From NCBI RefSeq assembly GCF_963921235.1, contig NC_086097.1:39000001-39064000 (forward strand): a DNA stretch of 64,000 nt. The letters run 5' to 3'. The notes under the pieces were generated by a model that saw nothing but the letters and a program-made list of their open reading frames with translations, did no database searches and had not been told where the DNA came from. A program made the translations under genes and the position numbers. This document shows, one piece after another, positions 16,950 to 56,632 of this stretch; the first letter of the stretch is position 1, and every line of letters begins with the position of its first letter. This DNA is from Mobula hypostoma (taxonomy: Eukaryota).

Positions 16950-19574
16950 GAATTGAATTGACTTTATTTCTTACATCCTTCATATGTGTGAGGAGTAAAA
17001 ATCTTTACACTATATCTCCGTCTGTATGTGCAATTTATAGTAATTTGTAATAAATAGTATGTACAGTATGATATACAACAGAACAGTCAATAGAGCTTAG
17101 AAATACAATTGTGTCAGCGTAAATTAATCAGTCTGATGGCGTGGCTTTAATACTGCGATACTGTTTCTCAGATGGTAGCAGCTGGAACATTTGTGAGTTG
17201 GGATTACTCGGGTCTCTAATGATCCTTAAGCCCTTTTTACGTGCCTGTCTTTTGATTAGTGGGAAGTTCACATCTACAGGTGTACTGGGCTGTCCACACC
17301 ACTCTCTGCAGAGCCCTGCGATTGGGGGAGGTAATGTTCCCATACCAGACAGTGATGCAGCCAGTCAGGATGCTCTCAATTGTGCCCCTATAGAAAGTCC
17401 TTAGGATTTGGGGACTCATGCCAAACTTCTTCAACCGTCTGAGGTGAAAGAGGCGCTGTTGTGCTTTTTTCACCACACAGTCAGTATGTACAGACCAAAT
17501 GAGATCCTTGTTGATGTGTATACTGAGGAACTTGAAGCTGTTCACCCTCTCAGCCCCAGATCCATTGATGTCAATAGGGGGTGAGTCTGTCTCCTTTCCC
17601 CCTTTAGACCACAACCAGTTCCTTTGTTTTTGCAACATTGAGGGAGAGGCTGTTTTCCTGACACCACTATGTCAGGGTGGTGACTTCTTCTCTGTCAGCT
17701 GCCTCATTGTTATTTGAGATGTGATCAGTCAGTGTGGTATCATCTGCAAATCTAATTTGCAGATTGGAGCTATGGCTGGTGACACAGTCATGGTTGTACA
17801 GAGAGTAAAGGAGGGGGCTTAGGACAAAGCCCTGGGGGACTCCTGTGTTGAGGGTCAGAGGGGCACAGGTGAGGGAACCCACTCTTACCACTTGCCGGCA
17901 ATCTGACAGGAAGTCCAGGATCCACGGTGGTGTCTGAAAAGAGGATGCTGTCTAAGTTGCATGCCATCTTGGTCAATGTCTCCCATCCACTGCATAATGT
18001 ACTGGGTGGGCACAGGAGTACATTCAGCCAGAGACTCATCCCACCGAGATGCAGTACTGAGCATCATAGGAAGTCATTCCTGCCTGTGGCCATCAAACTT
18101 TACAACTCCTCCCTTGGAGGGTCAGACACCCTGAGCCAATAGGCTGGTCCTGGACTTATTTCATAATTTACTGGCATAATTTACATTTAACTATTTATGG
18201 TTCTATTACTATTTATTATTTATGGAGCAACTGTAACGAAAACCAGTTTCCCCCAGGATTAATAAAGTATGACTATGACAATGACAACTGCACAAGACAG
18301 GGTGAAGGCCGAGGTTTCTGAGCTTCTTGTCAAGCCTGGAGAAAATTTTGGTGTTGAATGCTAAACTGTATTCTAAGAGCAGCACTCTCACATAAGCATC
18401 CCTCCTCTCCAGGTGTGTAAGGACAGTGTGTAAGAGCTGTAGCTATTGCATCATCTGTCAATCGGTTGTGTTGGTAGGCAAATTATAGAGGGTCCAGTGT
18501 GGGTGGTAGCAAGCTGCAGATGTAGTCCTTGACCAGCCTCTCAAAGCATTTGCTTGTTATTGAGGTGAGTGCAACAGGACACCACTAGTTCAGACATGCT
18601 ACCTTGGTCTTTTTAGGTACAGGGACAATGCTGGATGATTTGAAGCAGGAGGGCACTCTGCACTGGGTGCCATCCAGTCCTGTGCCTTGCGGCTGTTCAT
18701 TCATTGGAAAGACCTGCATACTTCAGCCTCAGAGATGACCAAGGTACAGGTTGCATCGGCATCTCTCCTCGGGGGCTCGGTGTTGGTGACGTTGAACCAA
18801 GTGGAAAGAAGATTTGGCCCATCTGGAAGAAAGGCAGCAATGCTAGCAGCACCACTGTGTTTAGCTTTGAAGTCTGCGATGGTGTGTAGACCTTGCCATA
18901 AGCTGCATGTGTTGTCAGTGGGGAGTTGTGTCTGGATCTTGTCCCTATACTGTTGTTTCGCTGCCTTGATGATTTTGTGTAGATCGTAGCTGCATTTCTT
19001 GAGTGCTTGGTGGTTACTGGCGGCAAAAGCTCTGAGTTGTTCTGGAAAGTGCAGCGCTCGGAACTGTTGATCCAGGGTTTCTGCTTTGGATAAACCCTGA
19101 CTGAATTTTGGGAGACAACGTCCTCGATGCACTTCTGGATGAAGCTCATGACCACTTCTGTGAACTAGGAGACATCCTCATCACAAAGGACATTCCAGTT
19201 GAAGTCATCAAAGCGGTCCTGTAGCATGGATACTGATTGGTTGGACCAACAGTGGACGGTTTTAACTATGGCCGTCTCTTGTTTCAGCTTCTGCCTGTAC
19301 GCGGCAGAAGCAGGATGGAGGAGTGGTCAGATTCTCAAATGGTGGACAGAGGAGCACTTTGTAAGCGTTGCAGAAGCGAGAGTAGCAGTGGTCGAGTATC
19401 TTATCTCTGTGTGCTCACCTGGATGTGTTGACAAAACTTCAGAGAGACTTCAGTCAGCAATGCTCAATGTCTCTGGTGACAATGAGAGCAGCCTCCAGGT
19501 GTATAGTCTCCAGGGTGCTGATGGTCTCGCACAATTCCTTGACAGCCAGGTCAGTATTGGCCTGCAGTGGAATA
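16950..19574 (-). mobile_element. Rex1/Babar-like LINE, with a nested + strand LINE 3' end at about 17926-18280 carrying a (TATGAC)n tail
   Basis: TGVPQGFVLSPLLYSLY, RFADDTT, FKFLSIHI and YRGTIESILTGCITVWYG motifs. Confidence 0.85.
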
Positions 19575-19576
19575 TA

Positions 19577-20079
19577 CAGTTGAAGTCAGAAGTTTACATA
19601 CACCTTAGCCAAATACATTTAAACTCAATTTTTCACAATTCCTGACATCTAATCCTAGAAAACATTCCCTGTCTTAGGTCAGTTAGGATCACTACTTTAT
19701 TTTAAGAATGTGAAATGTCAGAATAATAGTAGCAAGAATGATTTATTTCAGCTTTTATTTCTTTCACCAGTGGGTCAGAAGTTTACATACACTTTGTTAG
19801 TATTTGGTAGCATTGCCTTTAAATTGTTTAACTTGGGTCAAACGTTTTGGGTAGCCTTCCACAAGATTCTCACAGTACGTTGCTGGAGTTTGTTCCACTC
19901 CTCCAGACAGAACTGGTGTAACTGAGTCAGGTTTGTAGGCCTCCTTGCTCGCACACACTTTTTCAGTTCTGCCCACAAATTTTCTCCAAAGTTGTGGTAA
20001 AATTGCTTAAGGACAACAAAGTCAAGGTACTGGAGTGGCCGTCACAAAGCCCTGACCTCAATGCGATAGAAAATTTGTG
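19577..20079 (-). mobile_element. Sleeping Beauty-like Tc1 right end: IR/DR (19577-19793) plus transposase C-terminus, with an inverted segment at 19986-20079
   Basis: TA followed by CAGTTGAAGTCAGAAGTTTACATACACCTTAG (outer DR); inner DR CCAGTGGGTCAGAAGTTTACATACACT. Peptides [36 protein letters not shown] and [12 protein letters not shown]. Confidence 0.9.
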
Positions 20080-20955
20080 ATCACTGTCATCAAATTCCCT
20101 CTCATTGGTGAATACCAAAGAGAAGTATTCATTGAGGACCTCGCTCACTTCCACAGCCTCCAGGCACATCTTCCTACCTTTATCTCTAATCGGACCTACC
20201 TTCACTCCTGTCATCCTTTTGTTCTTCACATAATTGAAGAATGCCTTGGGGTTTTCCTTTACCCTACTCACCAAGGCCTTCTCATGCCCCCTTCTTGCTC
20301 TTCTCAGCCCCTTTTTAACCTCCTTTCTTGCTACCCTATATTCCTCAATAGACCCATCTGATCCTTGCTTCCTAAACCTCATGTATGCTGCCTTCTTCCA
20401 CCTGACTAGATTCTCCACCTCACTTGTCACCCATGGTTCCTTCACCCTACCATTCTTTATCTTCCTCACCGGGACAAATTTATCCCTAACATCCTGCAAG
20501 AGATCTCTAAACATGTCCATAGTACATTTCCCTGCAAAAACATCATCCCAATTCACACCCGCAAGTTCTAGCCTTATAGCCTCATAATTTGCCCTTCCCC
20601 AATTAAAATTTTTCCTGTCCTCTCTGATTCTATGCTTTTCCATGATAACGCTAAAGGCCAGGGAGCGGTGGTCACTGTCCCCCAGATGCTCACCCACTGA
20701 GAGATCTGTGACCTGACCCGGTTCGTTACCTAATACTAGATCTAGTATGGCACTCCCCCAGTCGGCCTGTCAACATACTGTGACAGGAATCCATCCTGGA
20801 CACACTTAACAAACCCTGCCCTGTCTAAACCCTTGGAACTAATCAGGTGCCAATCAGTATTAGGGAAGTTAAAGTCACCCATGATAACAACCCTGTTATT
20901 TTTGCACCTTTCCAAAATCTGCCTCCCAATCTGCTCCTCTGTATCTCTGCTGCTA
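20080..20955 (-). mobile_element. CR1 ORF2 APE/tether fragment
   Basis: ORF 19963..20697 minus (GDSDH...PWVTSEV...KENPKAFF). Confidence 0.85.
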
Positions 20956-21410
20956 CCAGTTTATAAAAGATATCAGTAGATAGACTGTCTCCGGAGATGG
21001 AGACAGAGAGATCGAGAAAGGGGAGGGAGGTGTCAGAAATGAACCAAGTAATTTTGAGCGCAGGGTCAAAGTTGGAGGCAAAGTTGATGAAATCGAGCTC
21101 AGTATGGCTGCAGGAAGTAGTACCAGTGCTGTCGTCAATGTAGCGTAAGAAGGGTTGGGGAGTGATGCCGGTGTAGGCTTGGAACGTGGAAGGTTCCACG
21201 TAGCCGATGAAAAGATAGGCATAGCTGGGACTCGTGCAAGTGCCCATGGCTAACCTTTGGTTTGAAGGAAGTGGGAGGAGCCAAAGGAGAAATTATTGAG
21301 GGTGAGGACCAGTTCTGTCAGACGGAGAAGAGTGGTGGTGCAGGGGAATGAGTTGGGACTGTTGGACAGAAAGAAGAAGTCTTTCAGGCCCTCCTGATGG
21401 GGGAGACGGT
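20956..21410 (-). mobile_element. PLE RT fragment (MGTCTSPSYA...FLRYIDD...LPFLDL)
   Basis: ORF 20843..21247 on the minus strand is similar to the PLE RT at 30-31 kb. Confidence 0.85.
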
Positions 21411-23050: not shown

Positions 23051-24385
23051 GGGTATAGTATTGCCTTCAATACTATAATTCCAAGCAAACTCATCAACAC
23101 CTCCCACTACAACTGGATCCTCCTGACTAGAATATCACGAACAACATGAATAGGCAGAAACACCTCTGCCTCAATTATTCTAAACACTGGTGCTTCTTGA
23201 GGTTGCACCCTCAGCCTCCTACTCTACTCCCTGAACAGTCATTACTGTATGGTCAGATTCTGCTCTAACCCCATCTGCCAGTTTTCAAATGATACCACTG
23301 TACTGGGCCATGTCTCAAATAATGATGGTGTACAGGAAGGAGATAGAGAGCTTAGTAGCATGGTGTTATGGTAATAACCTTTCTCTCAATGACCAGCTCT
23401 TTTGTTTTGTTGACATTGTCTTTGGGAAGTGGGTGTGCACATGCTCCTGTCTACTTCAATAGTATTGAGATTGAGAGCTTCAGGTTCCCAGGAATAAACA
23501 TCCTGTCGTCCAACCACATGGACACCATGGCCAACATGTCCACCAATGCCTCTACTTCTTCAGGAGGCTAAAGACTCCTCATTGACCTTTGCCAATTTTT
23601 ATCCATGTACCATAGAAAGCATCTAATCAGGAACTATCCAGATTTGGAATGGCAGTTTCTCAGCATATGACTTTAAGAAACTGCAGAGAGTTGTGTACAC
23701 AGCTCAGCACATCATGGAAACCAGATTCCTCACAATGGACTCCATTTATACATTTTTCTACCTCTGTCAAACAGCCAACCTAATCAAGGAGCCCACACAA
23801 CCCGGAAATTCTCTCTTCCCCCCTCTTCCACTGGGCAGAAGATACAAAAGTCCAAAACCATGTACCACCATTCTCAAGCAAAAGAAAATATGCAGATACT
23901 GGAAATCCAAGCAACACACACAAAATGGTGGAGGAACTCAACAGGCCAGGCAGCATCTATGGAAAAGAGCATAGTTGATGTTTCAGGCTGAGACCCTTCT
24001 GCAGGACCTGATGAAGTGCCTCAGCCCAAAACACCGACTATACTCTTTTCAATAGATGCTTCCTGGTTTGCTGAGTTCCTCCAGCAACTGGTGCATGTTA
24101 CCACCATTCTCAAGGACATCTCCTATCCTGCTGTTATAGAACAATTGATGGTTCCCTGGAATGATAAGGTGGAATCTTGACCTCACAATCTTGCTTGTTA
24201 TGATCTTGCACCTTATTGTTTACCTGCTCTGATGTTGGACAGTAGCTGTTAGATTTTATTCTGCATTTTGTTATTGTTTTATGTTTTCTCTGTGCACTGG
24301 GTAATGATTTGATCTGTATGAACAGTATCGAAGACCAGCTTTTCACTGTTTCTTGGCACTTCTGACAATAATATTCCAATTCCAA
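23050..24385 (+). mobile_element. Rex1/Babar-like fragment on the + strand, host of the 23879 palindrome
   Basis: gccttcaatactataattccaagcaaactc... and LQRVVYTAQHI...GRRYKS remnants. Confidence 0.7.
23879..24098. mobile_element. Palindromic PLE 3'-end insertion with a perfect 16-bp TSD
   Basis: TSD taccaccattctcaag at 23863-78 and 24099-114; inversion centre about 24006, between two degenerate HHR motifs. Confidence 0.85.
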
Positions 24386-28580: not shown

Positions 28581-30975
28581 GACAAGTCCAGGAAACCAGT
28601 GGCAGTAAGAAACGTGATGACAAGGACTGAATTATTTGATCATTACTGTTTACGGCTTAAGTAATCACTATGAATTATAAGTTCTGGATAGTCTGTATGC
28701 CTTTTTGCTTAATTATAAAACTACCTCGTACACTTACACTGAAGAACAGAGTATATAATGTACAAGGCAGAATGATTCAGATTTATTTATCACTTATACA
28801 TAGTGGCCACTTTATTAGGTACACTTGTACACCTTGTTGATGTAAATATCTAACCAGCCACTCAAGTGTCAGCAACTGTACATAAAAGCATGCAGACATG
28901 GTCAAGAGGTCCAGTTGTTTGAACCAAACATCAGAATAGGGAAGAAATATGATCTAAGTGACTTTGACCGTGGAATGATTGTTAATGCCAAACAACACAC
29001 ATCAAAGTTGCCGGTGAACGCAGCAGGCCAGGCAGCATCTCTAGGAAGAGGTACAGTCGACGTTTCAGGCCGAGACCCTTCGTCGGGACTAACTGAAGGA
29101 AGAGTGAGTAAGGGATTTGAAAGTTGGAGGGGGAGGGGGAGATCCAAAATGATAGGAGAAGACAGGAGGGGGAGGGATAGAGCCAAGAGCTGGACAGGTG
29201 ATAGGCAAAAGGGGATACGAGAGGATCATGGGACAGGAGGTCCGGGAAGAAAGACAAGGGGGGGGGGGACTCAGAGGATGGGCAAGAGGTATATTCAGAG
29301 GGGCTGAGGGAGAAAAAGGAGAGTGAGAGAAAGAATGTGTGCATAAAAATGAGTAACAGATGGGGTACGAGGGGGAGGTGGGGCCTTAGCGGAAGTTAGA
29401 GAAGTCGATGTTCATGCCATCAGGTTGGAGGCTACCCAGACGGAATATAAGGTGTTTTCCTCCAACCTGAGTGTGGCTTCATCTTTACAGTAGAGGAGGC
29501 TGTGGATAGACATGTCAGAATGGGAATGGGATGTGGAATTAAAATGTGTGGCCACTGGGAGATCCTGCTTTCTCTGGCGGACAGAGCGTAGATGTTCAGA
29601 AAAGCGGTCTCCCAGTCTGCGTCGGGTCTCGCCAATATATAAAAGGCCACATCGGGAGCACCGGACGCAGGATATCACCCCAGTCGACTCACAGGTGAAG
29701 TGTTGCCTCACCTGGAAGGACTGTTTGGGGCCCTGAATGGTGGTAAGGGAGGAAGTGTAAGGGCATGTGTAGCACTTGTTCCGCTTATACGGATAAGTGC
29801 CAGGAGGGAGATCAGTGGGGAGGGATGGGGGGGACGAATGGACAAGGGAGTTGTGTAGGGAGCGATCCCTGCGGAATGCAGAGAGAGGCGGGGAGGGAAA
29901 GATGTGCTTAGTGGTGGGATCCCGTTGGAGGTGGCGGAAGTTACGGAGATAATATGTTGGACCCGGAGGCTAGTGGGGTGGTAGGTGAGGGCCAGGGGAA
30001 CCCTATTCCTAGTGGGGTGGCGGGAGGATGGAGTGAGAGCAGATGTACGTGAAATGGGGGAGATGCGTTTAAGAGCAGAGTTGATAGTGGAGGAAGGGAA
30101 GCCCCTTTCTTTAAAAAATGAAGACATCTCCCTCGTCCTAGAATGAAAAGCCTCATCCTGAGAGCAGATGCGGCGGAGACGGAGGAATTGCGAGAAGGGG
30201 ATGGCGTTTTTGCAAGAGACAGGGTGAGAAGAGGAATAGTCCAGATAGCTGTGAGAGTCAGTAGGCTTATCGTAGACATCAGTGGATAAGCTGTCTCCAG
30301 AGACAGAGACAGAAAGATCTAGAAAGGGGAGGGAGGTGTCGGAAATGGACCAGGTAAACTTGAGGGCAGGGTGAAAGTTGGAGGCAAAGTTAATAAAATC
30401 AACGAGTTCTGCATGCGTGCAGGAAACAGCGCCAATGCAGTCGTCGATGTAGCAAAGGAAAAGTGGGGGACAGGTACCAAAATAGGCATGGAACATAGAT
30501 TGTTCCACAAAGCCAACAAAAAGGCAGGCATAGCTAGGACCCATACGGGTGCCCATAGCTACACCTTTAGTTTGGAGGAAGTGGGAGGACCCAAAGGAGA
30601 AATTATTAAGAGTAAGGACTAATTCCGCTAGATGGAGCAGAGTGATGGTAGAGGGGAATTGGTTAGGTCTGGAATCCAAAAAGAAGCGTAGAACTTTGAG
30701 ACCTTCCTGATGGGGGATGGAAGTATATAAGGACCGGACATCCATGGTGAAAATAAAGCGGTGGGGGCCAGGGAACTTAAAATCATCGAAAAGTTTAAGA
30801 GCGTGAGAAGTGTCACGAACATAGGTCGGAAGGGATTGAACAAGGGGTGATAAAACAGTGTCGAGGTATGCAGAAATGAGTTCGGTGGGGCAGGAGCAAG
30901 CTGAGACAATAGGTCGGCCAGGACAGGCAGGTTTGTGGATCTTGGGTAGGAGATAGAAACGGGAAGTGCGGGGTG

Positions 30976-32058
30976 TGTCCCCCACTTTTCCTTCGCTACA
31001 TCGACGACTGCATTGGCGCTGCTTCCTGCACGCATGCAGAACTCGTTGACTTTATTAACTTTGCCTCCAACTTTCACCCTGCCCTCAAGTTTACCTGGTC
31101 CATTTCCGACACCTCCCTCCCCTTTCTAGATCTTTCTGTCTCTGGAGGCAGCTTATCCACTGATGTCTACTATAAGCCTACTGACTCTCACAGCTATCTG
31201 GACTATTCCTCTTCTCACCCTGTCTCTTGCAAAAACGCCATCCCCTTTTCGCAATTCCTCCGTCTCCGCCGCATCTGCTCTCAGGATGAGGCTTTTCATT
31301 CTAGGACGAGGGAGATGTCTTCCTTTTTTAAAGAAAGGGGCTTCCCTTCCTCCACTATCAACTCTGCTCTTAAACGCATCTCCCCCATTTCACGTACATC
31401 TGCTCTCACTCCATCCTCCCGCCACCCCACTAGGAATAGGGTTCCCCTGGTCCTCACCTACCACCCCACTAGCCTCCGGGTCCAACATATTATTCTCCGT
31501 AACTTCCGCCACCTCCAACGGGATCCCACCACTAAGCACATCTTTCCCTCCCCGCCTCTCTCTGCATTCCGCAGGGATCGCTCCCTACACAACTCCCTTG
31601 TCCATTCGTCCTCCCCATCCCTCCCCACTGATCTCCCTCCTGGCACTTATCCGTGTAAGCGGAACAAGTGCTACACATGCCCTTACACTTCCTCCCTTAC
31701 CACCATTCAGGGCCCCAAACAGTCCTTCCAGGTGAGGCAACACTTCACCTGTGAGTCGACTGGGGTGATGTACTGCGTCCGGTGCTCCCGATGTGGCCTT
31801 TTATATATTGGCGAGACCCGACGCAGACTGGGAGACCACTTTGCTGAACATCTACGCTCTGTCCGCCAGAGAAAGCAGGATCTCCCAGTGGCCACACATT
31901 TTAATTCCACATCCCATTCCCATTCTGACATGTCTATCCACGGCCTCCTCTACTGTAAAGATGAAGCCACACTCAGGTTGGAGGAACAACACCTTATATT
32001 CCGTCTGGGTAGTCCCCAACCTGATGGCATGAACATCGACTTCTCTAACTTCCGCTAA
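30976..32058 (+). pseudogene. 5'-truncated PLE ORF (RT C-terminal half, Cys linker, GIY-YIG), open to its stop codon
   Basis: ORF track 30973..32058, 361 aa with no internal stops. Confidence 0.9.
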
Positions 32059-35675: not shown

Positions 35676-38600
35676 ATAGATTTAGCAGTTCATCAGGAGG
35701 CTCTTAAAGAGCCTTTTTATTTCTGATTTCTACTATGTGCAGTTACAACATCGATTTATTTTTAATATCCATGTCCATGATTGTGTGTTCAATTGTATTT
35801 TTTACCTGAGCTACAGCACAGAACAAGCCCTTCCAGCCCAGCGAGCTGCAACACCCAGCAACCCACCTAACTTGAGCATAATCACAGGACAACTTACAAT
35901 GACCAATTAACCTACTAACCAGAACGTCCTTAGAATGGGGGAGGAAACCCACGTGCTTCTTACAGGTGACATCAGAACTGAACTCCGAACTCTAATGCCC
36001 TGAGCCATAATAGTGTTGTGTTAACTGCTGCACCACCGAGGTACCCCCATTAGATTCCTGACCACCATTTTCTTGATATCACTTTTATATGCTATATTAT
36101 TCATGTAAAACCTAACATAGGAACTAATGACTTATAAATTCCTGCAGTAATTCTGATTAAATGTTATTTAATAGCTCAAATTCAAGTTTAATTATCATCA
36201 AACCATACATGAATAAGCCAAACAAAACAGCATTCCTCTGGGACCATTGTGCAAAACATAAACAGCACAAGGCACACAGCACATTCAAGATGGGAAGCAT
36301 ATTTACAGTCACACAAGAAAAAAATATATATATAGCCTAAGTCCCTGAGTGACAGGTCCCAGAATAACAGAAGCCTAGTTGCAATTTATTGCTTCCTAAG
36401 GCACTTTGGTTTTGTCCTTCTGATTTCACATCATCTGGCAGTGACTCCCTTAAGGTACTGAATTCAATTTTCCTACTGCCCCTTTAGAGATTGAAGTCAC
36501 CTCTTCAGACTCTCTGTATTGTCTCCAAGGCTTTGAATTTAGCCACAACTATTCTGAGTCAGTCAAACACTGGCCACACTTATTGAGCTTTTATTACTGT
36601 CCATTCCTGTTGTTATGTCCTTCAGAGTTTCTGAACTGCCTCCACACTGTATTGCAGATCTCTCTTAAATCAGCCAACTAGTGTTCTTGATTTGATGATT
36701 CAGTGCTTCCACAGTAGATGCCAAGTTCTTCTGCAGAATACTGGAGTCTTACTGTAATGGCACAGAAGTTTCTGAATCTTCTGGAAAGTGGCTTTCTCCT
36801 GCTGTTCAGATTCCTCTGAAATGTTTGCCCTCAAGGCTTGTGAATAGTTCCATTACTTGGACTCGAACCAATCAAAGTGGGCTCAGTTATTCATTTCCTT
36901 TGGGTCATATTTCCCTGTTTGAATTTTCCATGCAGCTTGTTACTTCCCTTTATAGGGGAACTCCTGATCTCACAGTGACCTTTGCAGATGGTTCTTTAGA
37001 TGACTCTATTAACATTGCATTTCATTGCTGTTATGATGCAATATCAACTTCACTGTTTACCAGTGGCATAACAGACATGACCAGCACTTGGCACCAGACA
37101 CCACCCCACACTGCTAACTGTCACCTCTACGGAGATGTGATTCTCACTTACTCTCAGTATTTTGTTTCTAAAGATGTATTCTTTGCTAATATTACTCAGA
37201 TCCTTTGCAAACCAACCTCCAAGAATATCAGTATCAGAATTGGGTTTAATATCACTGAAATATGTTGTTAAAAAGTGGTTTTGTGGCAGCAGTACATTGC
37301 AATACATAACAAACTAAATAAATACAACAAGAAATATGTATGTATTAAAAATGAAAATTAAAAAGTAGTGAAAAAGAGAGCAAAAAATTGAGGTAATGTA
37401 CATTGTCTATTCAGAAATCTGATGGCAGTGAGGAAGAAGCTGTTCCTAAAATGTTGCCTGTGTGTCTTCAGGCTCCTATACCTCCTTGATAGTTGCAATG
37501 AGAAGAGGGTGTGTCCTGGGTGATGGGCATCTTAATGACAGATGTTGCCTTTTTGAGGCATCGCTCCATGAAGATGTCGGTGATGCTAGGGAGGCCAGTG
37601 CCCGTGATGGAGCTTGCTGAGTTTGCAGCTTTTTCCTATCCTATGCAGTGACCCCTCCATACCAGACAGTGGTGCAATCAAATAAAATTCTCTCCATGGT
37701 ACATCTATAGAAATTTGCAAGAAAGTTGGTGTCTCCTCAGACTTCTGATGGAATATAGCCACTGTTGTGCCGCCTTTGTAATTGCATCTATATACTGAGC
37801 CTTGGATAGATCTTTAGAGATGTTGACACTTAGGAACTTGAAACTGCTCACCCTTTCCACTGCTGGTCCTTGATGAGGATTGGTGTGTGTTCCCTCAACT
37901 TCTCTTTCCTGAAGTTCACAAACAGTTGCTGCAACATCATTCAACCAGCTGATCTATCTCACTCTTGTACGCCTTCTCGTCACTACCTAAAATTATGCCA
38001 ATAATAATTGTATCTTTTGCCACACAGCTGTGAATGTAGACAGAAAGAGCAGTGGGCTAAGCACACCTCTTTTAAGTGCACCACTGTTGATTTTCAACAA
38101 GGAGGAAATGTTATTTCTGATCTGCACTGACCTCTTGGTAAGGAAGTCAAGGTTCCTATTACAGAGGGAGGCTGGCACAGGTTTTGGAGCTTGTTGATTA
38201 GAACTGAGGGTATGATGGTGTTAAACACTGACCTGTTATCAATAAACAGCATCCTGACATGGGTATTGCTATTGTACAGGTAATCCAAGCCCAAATGGAA
38301 AGTCACTATAGACCTATCATGATGGTGGACAACATGCACCAGGTCCTGGTCCTAGCTTAGGCAAGAGTTGATTTTGGCCAAGACCATCCTCTCAAAGCAC
38401 TTCATCATAGTAGATATGAACGCAATTGGGTGATAGTCTTTGAGCCAACTTACTTGGGCAGCGTTAAGACTGTCGCCCTTTTGAAGCATGTGGGAACCTC
38501 TGACCACAGCAGTGAGAGAACAAAGATGCCTCCAACATTCCAGCAGTTGGTTGGCATGGGTTTTCAGTGTCGCCTGGCAAGGGTTCACCTTCACAAAAGC

Positions 38601-41859: not shown

Positions 41860-42270
41860 AATACGGTAGTTGCGCAGCTGGGGTAAGCGAATCAGAGTCG
41901 GCTGCCCTGTGACGTGAAGGTGATGTCAGAAGGCGGGCGGGGTTTCGGGCGGAGTGTGTCCGGAGTGCGAGTTCCGAGCGGCCGCAGTGGAGGACTGCGT
42001 TATGGCGACACGAGGTGAGTGTTGGTGGCGAATCCTGGCGGGAAGTCGGGTCGAGCGACCCTGGTGGCGCCGGCATCTGCCTCCACCGCCCCTTGTTCTC
42101 GCAGGTTGGCTGCGCGGCGCTCGCGTTGCTGTCGAGCCTGACTGGAGGCCTAATCTTGGGACCTGTAGCAAAGGTACCAGACCAGGCCCGTGTTGAGTCC
42201 CGGATCCTCGCGAAGCGGCGAAGTCCTTATGTGGGCTGCGCCTGTGTCTAAATATATCAGATCTCCGGCA
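41860..42270 (+). promoter_or_regulatory. PRPF39: CpG-island promoter of PRPF39 with a CRE/ATF-like TGACGTGA (41910-41917) and GC boxes (GGGCGGGG about 41935, GGGCGGAG about 41947)
   Basis: The only strongly GC/CpG-rich unique segment in the window; it contains a strong donor GAG|gtgagt at 42014. Confidence 0.85.
42002..42014 (+). CDS. PRPF39: PRPF39 exon 1 coding part (ATG GCG ACA CGA G)
   Basis: The ATG at 42002, spliced to 44754, gives an open frame MATRGLSETASSPSDG... continuous with the exon 2 ORF. Confidence 0.7.
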
Positions 42271-53210: not shown

Positions 53211-56200
53211 TCTTTCTTTTTAAATCTTTTTATTGAGTAAGTATACAAAAAAGGTAAGCCATATAAACATTAATACAATGTTAAAGTATAATAAAATTCC
53301 AAAAGATATCAATACCAAAAAGAAATTACTACAAACAATGTAATTTAAACATAAGAAACCAAGATAACATAATAGTATACTAAATTTTATATATATCAAT
53401 GGAAAAAAAAAAGAAAAAAAAAACCCCCAAAAAAAAACCCACCGTGCAGCTAACTAAAAGCAAAGCAAAGCAATGGGCTAACTTGAAACCAAACAGAGTT
53501 AAACTTAAAATCACGTCCTCAATCCCGACCTCCATTAAAAACAGTGAAAAAAAAACAAGAAGGGTAAATATTACATTAAATGAAAATATCGAATAAAAGG
53601 TCCCCAAATCTGTTCAAATTTAAATGAAGAATCATAAAGGTTACTTCTAATTTTCTCCAAATTCAAACATAAAATCGTCTGAGAAAACCAAAAAAAGGTA
53701 GTTGGAGCATTAAGCTCTTTCCAATGTTGTAAAATACATGTTTTCGCCATTAAAGTAAGAAATGCAATCATTCTACGGGCTGAAGGGGAAAGATTACTAG
53801 AAATTTTAGATAGTCCAAAGATAGCAGTAATAGGGTGAGGAGAGATATCTATATTTAATACCTTAGAAATAATATTGAAAATATCTCTCCAAAAAGTTTC
53901 CAAAGCAGGGCAAGACCAAAACATATGAGTTAAAGAGGCTATCTGCCCCGAACATCTAACACAGAAAGGATTAATATGCGAGTAAAAACGCGCTAACTTA
54001 TCTTTGGACATATGTGCTCTATGAACCACTTTAAATTGAATTAGGGAATGTTTAGCACAAATAGAGGAAGTATTAACTAATTGTAAAATCTGCCCCCAAT
54101 CATCCACAGAAATGGTAAGCCCCAATTCCTGTTCCCAATCTACCCTAATCTTATCAAATGGAGCTTTCCTAAGTTTCATAATAATATTATAAATCATAGC
54201 CGATGCACCTTTCTGACATGGATTAAGGTTAATTATCGAATCTAAAATATATGTAGGAGGAAGCATTGGAAAGGAAGAAAGTATAGTACTTAGGAAATTT
54301 CTAACTTGTAAATATCTAAAAAAATGTATTCTTGATAAGTTATATTTATTAGATAATTGTTCAAAAGACATAAGGGAACCATCTAAAAATAAATCCAAAA
54401 ACCGTAAAATGCCCTTAGTCTTCCAAGTTTGAAAAGCGCGATCCGTAAAAGAGGGAGGAAAAAATATGTTACCTAAAATAGGAATCGCTAACCCGAATTG
54501 ATTAAGATCAAAAAATTTTCTGAATTGAAACCAAATGCGCAAAGCATATTTAACTATCGGGTTAGAGACCTGCTTAAGACGTTTCGAATCAAAAGGGAGA
54601 GAGGAGCCTAAAATAGAACCAAGTGTATAACCCTGAACCGATTGTAATTCCAATGCTACCCATTTAGGAATAGATAGTATGTCCTGGTCAAGTAACCAAA
54701 ATTTCATATGTCGAATATTAATAGCCCAATAATAGAATCTAAAGTTAGGTAATGCTAAACCTCCATCTCTCTTAGCTTTCTGTAAATGTATTTTACCCAG
54801 TCTCGGATTCTTATTCTGCCAAATAAATGAAGAAATTTTAGAGTCAACTTTATCAAAAAAAGATTTTGGAACGAAAATTGGTAATGCCTGAAACACATAT
54901 AAAAATTTTGGCAAAAAAAACATCTTAACCGCATTAATACGACCAATCAAAGTTAAATATAAAGGAAACCATTTAGATGAAAGTTGAGTAATATGGTCTA
55001 TTAATGGTAAAAAGTTAGTCTTAAATAAATCTTTGTATTTACAAGTAATTTTAATCCCAAGATATGAAAAGTAATTATTAATCAATTTAAATGGAAATTT
55101 ATAATATAAGGGAAGATGTTTATTAATCGGAAAAAGTTCACTCTTACTAAGATTTAATTTATAACCTGAGAAAAGACCAAATTGTGCTAATAACTCTAAA
55201 ACAGCAGGAATGGATCTCTCAGGATTAGAAATATATAAAAGTAAATCATCAGCATAGAGTGATAATTTATGGGACTTTAATCCCCGAGTTATCCCAGTAA
55301 TATTTGAAGATTCTCGAATAGCAATTGCAAGAGGTTCTAATGCAATATCAAATAATAGGGGACTAAGAGGACAGCCTTGTCGAGTACCACGAAAAAGAGG
55401 AAAAAAAGGTGAGTTTAAAGAGTTAGTACGAACCGAGGCTTTAGTATTAGAGAAATTGATGCTCTATTAAAAGATTCAGGAAGTTTACCAAGTTTCAAAG
55501 AAGCCTCAAAAACCCTACCGAGCCAAGGAATCAATAAAGAAGCAAAACATTTATAAAATTCAACGGTAAACCCATCAGGGCCAGGAGCTTTCCCCAGATT
55601 CATAGAAAAAATAACATTCTTAATCTCATCCATTGTAATGGAAGTATCTAATAAGGAAGACATATCCTGTGAAATCTGAGGGAAGTCTAACTTATCTAAA
55701 AAATCATTCATATATTTAGAATCTCGAGGAGACTCTGATTGATATAAAGAAGAATAAAAATCACAAAAGGTTTGATTAATCCCCACATGATCCAGTATCA
55801 ATCGATCATTTTGGTTATAAATCTGATTGATTTGAGATTTAACATAATTAGATTTCAATTGATTAGCCAGCAGCTTGCCAATTTTGTCACTGTGAACATA
55901 AAAGTCACTTCTTGTTTTCTTTAATTGGTTTACAATCGAGGACGAGAGTAGTAAACTGTGTTCCATTTGAAGTTCAGTTCTTTGTTTATATAACTCAGAA
56001 GGAGCCATAACATATTTCTTATCAATTTCTTTAATCTTGTCCACAATTACCATCTCCTCCTGCTTCTGTTTCTTCCTCAGAGCAACCGAATACGAAATAA
56101 TCTGACCCCGAATATAGGCTTTAAAAGTGTCCCAAAGAGTGTTAACCGAAATATCTTCTGTATGGTTAATTGTAAAAAAAAGCTCAATCTGTTCATTCAT

Positions 56201-56632
56201 AAAATTAACAAAGTCCGAGTCCTGAAGCAACAGCGAATTAAAACGCCATTGTCTATTATTTGGTATATTGGCCATAATTTTAATAGAAAGCTTAAGTGGA
56301 GCATGATCCGAAATGGTTATAGAATCATAATCACATTTAATCACTGAAGGAATAAGACGAGAATCAATGAAAAAATAATCAATTCTTGAATAGGAATGAT
56401 GAACATGTGAAAAGAAGGAAAAATCTTTTTCCTGAGGATGCAGAAAACGCCAAATGTCCGTCGACCCAGAATCAGAAAGGAAAAAATTAATCAGATTTGC
56501 AGATTTATTAGGTAAAGTCCGTAAAGGAGCCGAACGGTCCAAAGCTGGAGACAAACAGGTATTAAGATCTCCGCCCCAGATCAATGAAAACTCGTTCAAA
56601 TTCGGAAACTGATCGAACAATGATTTATAAAA
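53211..56632 (-). mobile_element. Young 5'-truncated L1-clade LINE (ORF2: APE C-terminus, RT, CCHC) with a 19-bp TSD
   Basis: ORFs 55415..56620 and 53571..55085 with GGDLN, SRIDY, SDH, RQGCPLSP, YADD and CVRC..THMFWSC. AATAAA at 53229-34 plus an A-rich tail; TSD ttaaattctccatattctt at 53192-53210 and 56633-56651. Confidence 0.95.

Follow-up and report, generated by a model that had tools for sequence, protein, structure and literature searches.

A decayed Sleeping Beauty-clade transposon in a myliobatiform ray lineage, very probably acquired by horizontal transfer

The window, that is, the whole 64-kb stretch of DNA that was analyzed, carries at positions 19577–20079 the dead 3' third of a Tc1 element of the Sleeping Beauty (SB) clade, and the presence of such an element in a ray lineage is very probably best explained by horizontal transfer. 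We propose that an SB-clade IR/DR Tc1 transposon would have entered the germ line of the myliobatiform ray lineage by this route, with ray-finned fishes or a vector common to both lineages as the most likely source, and that the invader would have spread by cut-and-paste transposition and then decayed. The copy described here is integrated at a TA within a LINE of the host. The breadth of the SB family in ray-finned fishes suggests the direction into the ray. A sequence-only reading of the same DNA had already named the element a candidate for horizontal transfer and had set an identity to SB below 75% as the result that would speak against it; the identities of 92–95% that we find lie far above this limit and support the candidate.

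The element and its host

Our reference for the comparison was L001, a natural, TA-flanked, full-length element of 1639 bp obtained by a metagenome pattern scan (four rows on two contigs). L001 is 99.3% alike to L003, which is also full-length with 1639 bp, and the label "salmonid type" that we use for these two metagenome contigs rests on their identity to SB structures and to salmonid-labelled proteins. The L001 protein agrees with the SB PAI domain structure at 53/53 residues, with the RED domain at all aligned residues except the first, and with the SB100X catalytic domain at all but a few positions; these few differences are presumably the engineered changes of SB100X. Another, dissimilar Tc1 element occupies positions 1–1612 of the L001 sequence; it has an open frame of 358 aa, lies head to head with the SB element and has the TA in common with it. 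This arrangement may result from two collapsed repeats having been joined in assembly.

In the window, a TA target dinucleotide (19575–19576) marks the right end of the element. TA is found on both flanks of the full-length elements L001 and L003; here, a single side survives, so no target-site duplication is demonstrable. The TA is followed on the minus strand by a 217-bp inverted repeat of the IR/DR type (19577–19793), which aligns to the post-stop right end of L001 with 209/220 bases (95.0%) and differs from it by one 8-bp deletion beside the inner DR. As it is only 71.6% identical to the left IR of L001, we identify it as the right end. The outer DR, the transposase-binding site (19577–19608, minus strand), matches L001 at 31/32 positions and, compared by eye, differs at a single position from the SB end primer given in PMC5224488, and the inner DR (19767–19793, minus strand) carries the 8-bp deletion at its outer edge and has an intact core. 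The DR core is repeated at 19585–19606 and 19774–19795, with the two cores 95% alike and the second one 189 bp inside. A 27-nt terminal pattern matched once in the window and in 0/100 shuffles. Members of the IR/DR subgroup of Tc1/mariner DD34E are described as carrying two direct repeats in a long terminal IR of about 230 bp (PMC5224488), a trait that this end shows. The sequence-only reading had described a TA followed by an inverted-repeat end of roughly 217 bp with outer and inner DRs, and in this it was right. A paired left IR with the HDR enhancer is missing from this truncated copy: no second element end was found within the 64-kb window, and the left 1138 bp of the element are absent from it.

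The repeat adjoins transposase codons 279–340 and the stop (19797–19984, minus strand), with 175/189 aligned bases in agreement with L001 (92.6%). This main coding piece is broken into two reading frames by a 1-nt deletion near 19883–19887, and both frames of the minus-strand peptide match SB100X (PDB 5cr4; E 9.9e-14 and E 3.6e-10). The adjoining C-terminal transposase peptide that had been read from the sequence is thus present, but it is split over two frames. Taken together, the window from 19985 to 19577 corresponds to nt 1222–1639 of the L001 element, with 384 matches, 25 mismatches and the two deletions, of 1 nt in the coding part and of 8 nt in the IR. The earlier description as nearly identical to SB amounts to 93.9% over the aligned bases of the main piece (384/409; 91.9% with gaps) and not to about 99%. 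The element also does not end at 19985, as had been assumed, but reaches 20079, and a 95-bp flipped piece and a 12-bp inverted duplication had been missed. Of the DD34E triad and the PAI-RED domain, the surviving codons 251–340 contain the catalytic Glu; the codons for the two Asp residues have been lost from this copy, and so has the N-terminus. We take the Glu, which lies in codons 279–340, to be E279.

The host was identified from PRPF39, six coding exons of which lie on the same contig (44753–61846, plus strand), 25–42 kb from the element. The first exon has its best match in Hypanus sabinus (92%), followed by other batoids, sharks, the chimaera and bony vertebrates. For 11 of the 43 matches, identities of the host protein were summed over local alignments. 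They amount to 89.7% with the Hypanus sabinus cluster, 79.6% with a skate and 80.3% with an electric ray; two sharks give 70.3% and 69.3%, the chimaera gives 66.5%, and four ray-finned fishes outside the teleosts, namely bowfin, sturgeon, gar, and reedfish, give 57.2–65.6%. None of the 43 matches was a teleost PRPF39. These exons place the host as a myliobatiform ray, in line with the earlier supposition of a chondrichthyan rather than a teleost host. PRPF39 probably has its promoter and first exon in a GC-rich, CpG-island-like region with a splice donor at 41900–42250.

Identity to Sleeping Beauty and possible routes into the ray

Over all aligned bases, the window agrees with L001 at 461/492 positions (93.7%, JC distance 0.066), and the peptide at 78/89 residues. 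The SB clade has been delimited by a coding identity above 80% within the clade, with 61% between SB and SB-like elements and at most 61% to sibling clades (PMC9777934); the two coding pieces of the window reach 92.6% and 93.7% to L001, and the nearest representative of another family that spans the whole protein is 66% identical to P0043. In a 62-residue tree with the Mobula protein P0013 as the ray row, the ray tail falls inside the SB group (support 95/95), and it groups with the salmonid type at only 80/80, with one outgroup in that group as well. By these identities, the window element is assigned to the SB clade of Tc1.

The lineages of rays and teleosts diverged about 462 Ma (PMC13343379), and DNA transposons are reported to evolve neutrally within their hosts (PMC7070016). 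Vertical descent is hard to square with non-coding DNA that is 5% divergent and with differences from L001 at 3/29 fourfold-degenerate sites, when the host protein has changed by 34–43% since that split, a comparison in which the host side is the protein divergence of PRPF39 and not synonymous DNA divergence. By the same PRPF39 comparison, the non-coding DNA of the element is closer to a bony-fish element (95.0%) than the host protein is to that of a ray of the same order (89.7%). Inheritance from a jawed-vertebrate ancestor, kept by a slow elasmobranch clock, could appeal to the very low mutation rate of sharks (7e-10 per generation; PMC10587355) and to ancestral-looking residues kept by the ray copy: P312 stands in 77/114 outgroup proteins, and L303, in place of which the ray copy has F303, in only 4/118. 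Because of this low rate, the ray branch alone says little and the insertion is not datable, but the teleost branch still counts, and it would need to have kept non-coding DNA 95% intact over about 462 My. The teleost SB subfamilies, moreover, differ by 14–18% in protein, more than the ray copy does from L001 (11/89), and the host PRPF39 has diverged by 34–43% in protein, so that we regard vertical inheritance as extremely improbable.

It could also be asked whether the element is a product of contamination or mis-assembly, with DNA of a salmonid or of an SB vector wrongly joined to ray sequence. Part of the stretch was found in 24 public runs from 11 coded organisms, with shares of 0.44–0.51, and the best-matching runs are all of the salmonid letter type; as none exceeds 0.51 of the sampled words, there is no independent ray run among them, which favors contamination. 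Four of the 24 runs were compared letter by letter, and they have the L001 letter at 21/21 positions where all four differ from the window; none of these four covers the element junctions, and they are carriers of the salmonid type and not of the ray type. Against a contaminant stand the 31 substitutions, two deletions and an inversion that separate the copy from L001, its insertion at a LINE-internal TA, with ray PRPF39 on the same contig, and the lack of any match among 72,556 plasmids. The six residues that the window has in common with P0013, a Mobula gene model at another locus, and as a set with no other retrieved protein, likewise argue against salmon or vector DNA. A contaminant is very improbable on these grounds.

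More weight, although it too seems unlikely, has to be given to a real transfer by another route, from ray to teleost or from a third host such as a parasite, a virus, or a lamprey that seeded both lineages. The ray element is not nested in the salmonid copies but stands between the salmonid (7/11) and the Prochilodus/Muraenolepis (4/11) types, and a parasite-linked Tc1 transfer has been published for lampreys (PMC3516227). What speaks against such a route is that the diversity and host range of the SB clade are centered in ray-finned fishes, with 107 actinopterygian species from 33 orders and one mollusc, a snail (PMC9777934), and that the viral contigs and prokaryote genomes searched yielded no SB relative: the pattern had 0 matches in either set, and none of 21 viral and 14 prokaryote stretches was confirmed. 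Transfer from ray-finned fishes or a shared vector into the ray lineage is therefore the reading that we prefer. Among the 65 and 120 SB-matching proteins listed, one is from a named chondrichthyan, a count that reflects annotation practice as much as biology.

The ray subfamily and its relatives

P0013 is the TTC33 isoform X3 of Mobula hypostoma on a 199-Mb contig, and this gene model ends in an exonised SB tail. At residues about 142–235, a short antisense piece of the transposase 5' region is joined to the sense C-terminal tail. By its structure, this second ray copy is rearranged as well and exonised in a host gene model, and both ray copies examined are broken or rearranged. The window and P0013 are possibly from one and the same species. 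F303, L305, N309, P312, A313, and E317 are common to the window and P0013, and this set occurs in 1/164 retrieved proteins (20 of which do not cover the sites), which places the window copy in a ray-specific subfamily represented at two loci.

The relation of this subfamily to the known types was analyzed at 11 clear sites, defined from 25 salmonid-labelled proteins versus 11 proteins of the Prochilodus/Muraenolepis type. The window has the salmonid residue at 7/11 of these sites and the Prochilodus/Muraenolepis residue at 4/11, and all four sites of the latter kind lie within codons 303–317, with 0/6 among the clear sites outside. The ray-subfamily residues lie in a cluster of differences from the salmonid type at 19866–19912 (minus strand), which holds 12/31 mismatches in 47 of 492 columns (permutation p about 0.0006 with a 50-column window), and identity outside the cluster is 95.7%. 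Such a pattern could mean that the ray (or the salmonid) subfamily is a recombinant in which a short tract around codons 303–317 was swapped between two SB subfamilies, as both the mismatch cluster and the confinement of the four other-teleost-type residues to this tract would be expected in that case. However, the tract was picked after the data had been seen, part of the excess consists of ray-specific or copy-specific changes (305, 309, 311, and 318), and F303 and P312 look ancestral, so that a salmonid-specific change explains them without recombination; we therefore treat a recombinant origin as possible but doubtful. The outgroup states in 143 proteins show P312 as the commonest residue (77/114) and L303 as rare (4/118), with position 313 split and 317 uninformative. 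The reading that fits best, though weakly supported, places the ray subfamily beside the salmonid SB lineage as its sister, which would have kept older residues, and does not make it a direct copy. As the ray element is a separate subfamily, these comparisons do not point to a salmonid fish as donor. In the segment 303–317, SB100X carries N314, a residue of the other teleost type, and the SB-clade protein P0102 combines Prochilodus-type residues at 303–317 with the salmonid-type K287 and T298. The residue mix of P0102 indicates that further intermediate SB subfamilies exist.

Compared with known systems, the window copy is like SB10/SB100X (PDB 5cr4, 5unk, 2m8e), L001, and L003 in its IR/DR right end with two DRs, in the TA, and in the C-terminal peptide. 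Unlike SB and L001, it has a ray host, one end only, a frameshift, the 8-bp IR deletion, and a 95-bp inversion, and it differs in the subfamily residues 303, 305, 309, 312, 313, and 317. The non-salmonid teleost SB type (Prochilodus magdalenae P0076, Muraenolepis orangiensis P0072, and P0070) has F303, P312, A313, and E317 in common with the ray copy but differs from it at seven other clear sites, and it has a protein identity of 82–86% to L001. The SB clade of Jia et al. (2022) is likewise a DD34E/Tc1 branch with frequent horizontal transfer, and the available text of that survey gives no SB host in Chondrichthyes but one chondrichthyan with a ZB-like element (PMC9777934). The teleost–lamprey transfer of the DTSsa1 group also shows 92–99% identity across a very deep vertebrate split; it involves a different Tc1 family, which was not amplified from the cartilaginous fishes tested (PMC3516227). 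Many transfers of Rex1 and L2 connect the same pair of host lineages, rays and teleosts, but these are retrotransposons and not DNA transposons (PMC13343379). Tc1 transfers are on record among teleosts, lampreys, frogs, and bichir (PMC3516227, PMC2198921), and a vertebrate survey counted 975 transfers, mostly in ray-finned fishes, with Callorhinchus and Rhincodon as the cartilaginous species and, as far as its accessible text goes, no batoid (PMC7070016).

The open literature that was searched contains no account of SB from cartilaginous fishes, and an SB-type family in rays is apparently previously unreported. The share of TcMar elements has been given as 3.28% for skates, 2.30% for rays, and 0.14% for sharks, in an account that, in its accessible parts, leaves horizontal transfer unmentioned (PMC12361510). 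A mobulid genome preprint (10.64898/2026.10.27.761883) reports DNA transposons of up to 2.90% and, in the portion available, no Tc1 analysis, and sharks and rays are unmentioned in what is accessible of the main text of another preprint (10.1101/2024.12.18.629015). It is tempting, though we consider it rather improbable, to suppose that marine ray-finned fishes passed a distinct SB subfamily on to myliobatiform rays, that this invasion helps to explain the batoid Tc1/mariner excess over sharks (2.3–3.3% vs 0.14%, PMC12361510), and that the subfamily survives somewhere as intact 340-aa copies. If this were true, the intact ray copies would be SB variants of natural origin, set apart by the 303–317 segment. 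With the ray copy, the best-known transposon for gene transfer in vertebrates gains a host on the cartilaginous side of the split from bony fishes. Its horizontal transfer would add a DNA transposon to the exchanges between rays and teleosts, which have so far been reported only for LINEs. As the large vertebrate transfer survey had no batoid among its two cartilaginous fishes, rays are a real sampling gap. A dated family-wide analysis could show whether the batoid Tc1/mariner excess stems from repeated invasion. Two things limit the surprise: this copy is a dead one, and Tc1 elements have commonly moved between fishes.

Rearrangement of the copy and its surroundings

Beyond the main piece, an inverted piece of the same transposase gene (19985–20079, plus strand) corresponds to element nt 1139–1233, codons 251–281, with 89/95 nt in agreement with L001 (93.7%). 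Its translation (19985–20077) matches 5cr4 at 28/31 residues (E 6.8e-12) and Pfam DDE_3 with E 0.0008, below the curated cut-off. The last 12 bp of this piece (20068–20079, plus strand) form an inverted duplication with 19974–19985, 12/12 identical, so that element nt 1222–1233 are present in both pieces. Where the left 1138 bp of the element would be expected, a LINE fragment (20080–20960, minus strand) is fused to the inverted piece; we take it to be of the CR1 type. On the other side, a decayed LINE (18697–19574, minus strand), which presumably is of the Rex1/Babar type, hosts the insertion, and because its reading frame resumes directly at the TA, the element must have been inserted into an older LINE. 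Pfam gave no match on the flanking LINE pieces at 18697–19574 and 20080–20960, and an RVT_1 match was obtained at 17667–17951.

A single complex break-repair or template-switch event may have flipped the 95 bp, duplicated the 12 bp, and fused the LINE that now replaces the left two thirds of the element, as such an event would fit the combination of an inversion, a short inverted duplication, and a direct fusion to foreign DNA. Autointegration was rejected as the origin of the inversion because both junctions lack an element end and a duplicated TA, and LINE twin priming because the 3' end is a precise IR with a TA and has no tail. The flipped piece is also unlikely to stem from a second SB copy, since it and the main piece adjoin each other in element coordinates. 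SB transposition requires both IR/DR ends (PMC5224488), and since the copy has one end only and no catalytic aspartates, it is immobile, neither able to make transposase nor mobilisable as a unit. An intact 340-aa ORF between two IRs is absent in this truncated, frameshifted, and rearranged copy.

Between 17237 and 21400, about 20 kb upstream of PRPF39, deletions have fused the LINE pieces, the main piece of the SB element, and a piece of Penelope type into one co-oriented pile on the minus strand. Two long, near-intact frames of 447 aa (minus strand) and 381 aa (plus strand) face in opposite orientations at 29412–32058, and we assume that they are of the Penelope type. A 93-bp inverted repeat with a 1-nt spacer and 78% complementarity (23913–24099) is possibly a MITE, and a 190-aa open frame without a Pfam match (36699–37271, plus strand) is possibly an exon of a neighboring host gene. 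An L1/Tx1-like ORF2 with frames of 405 and 630 aa and with RVT_1 and zf-RVT matches lies antisense in a PRPF39 intron (53571–56632, minus strand).
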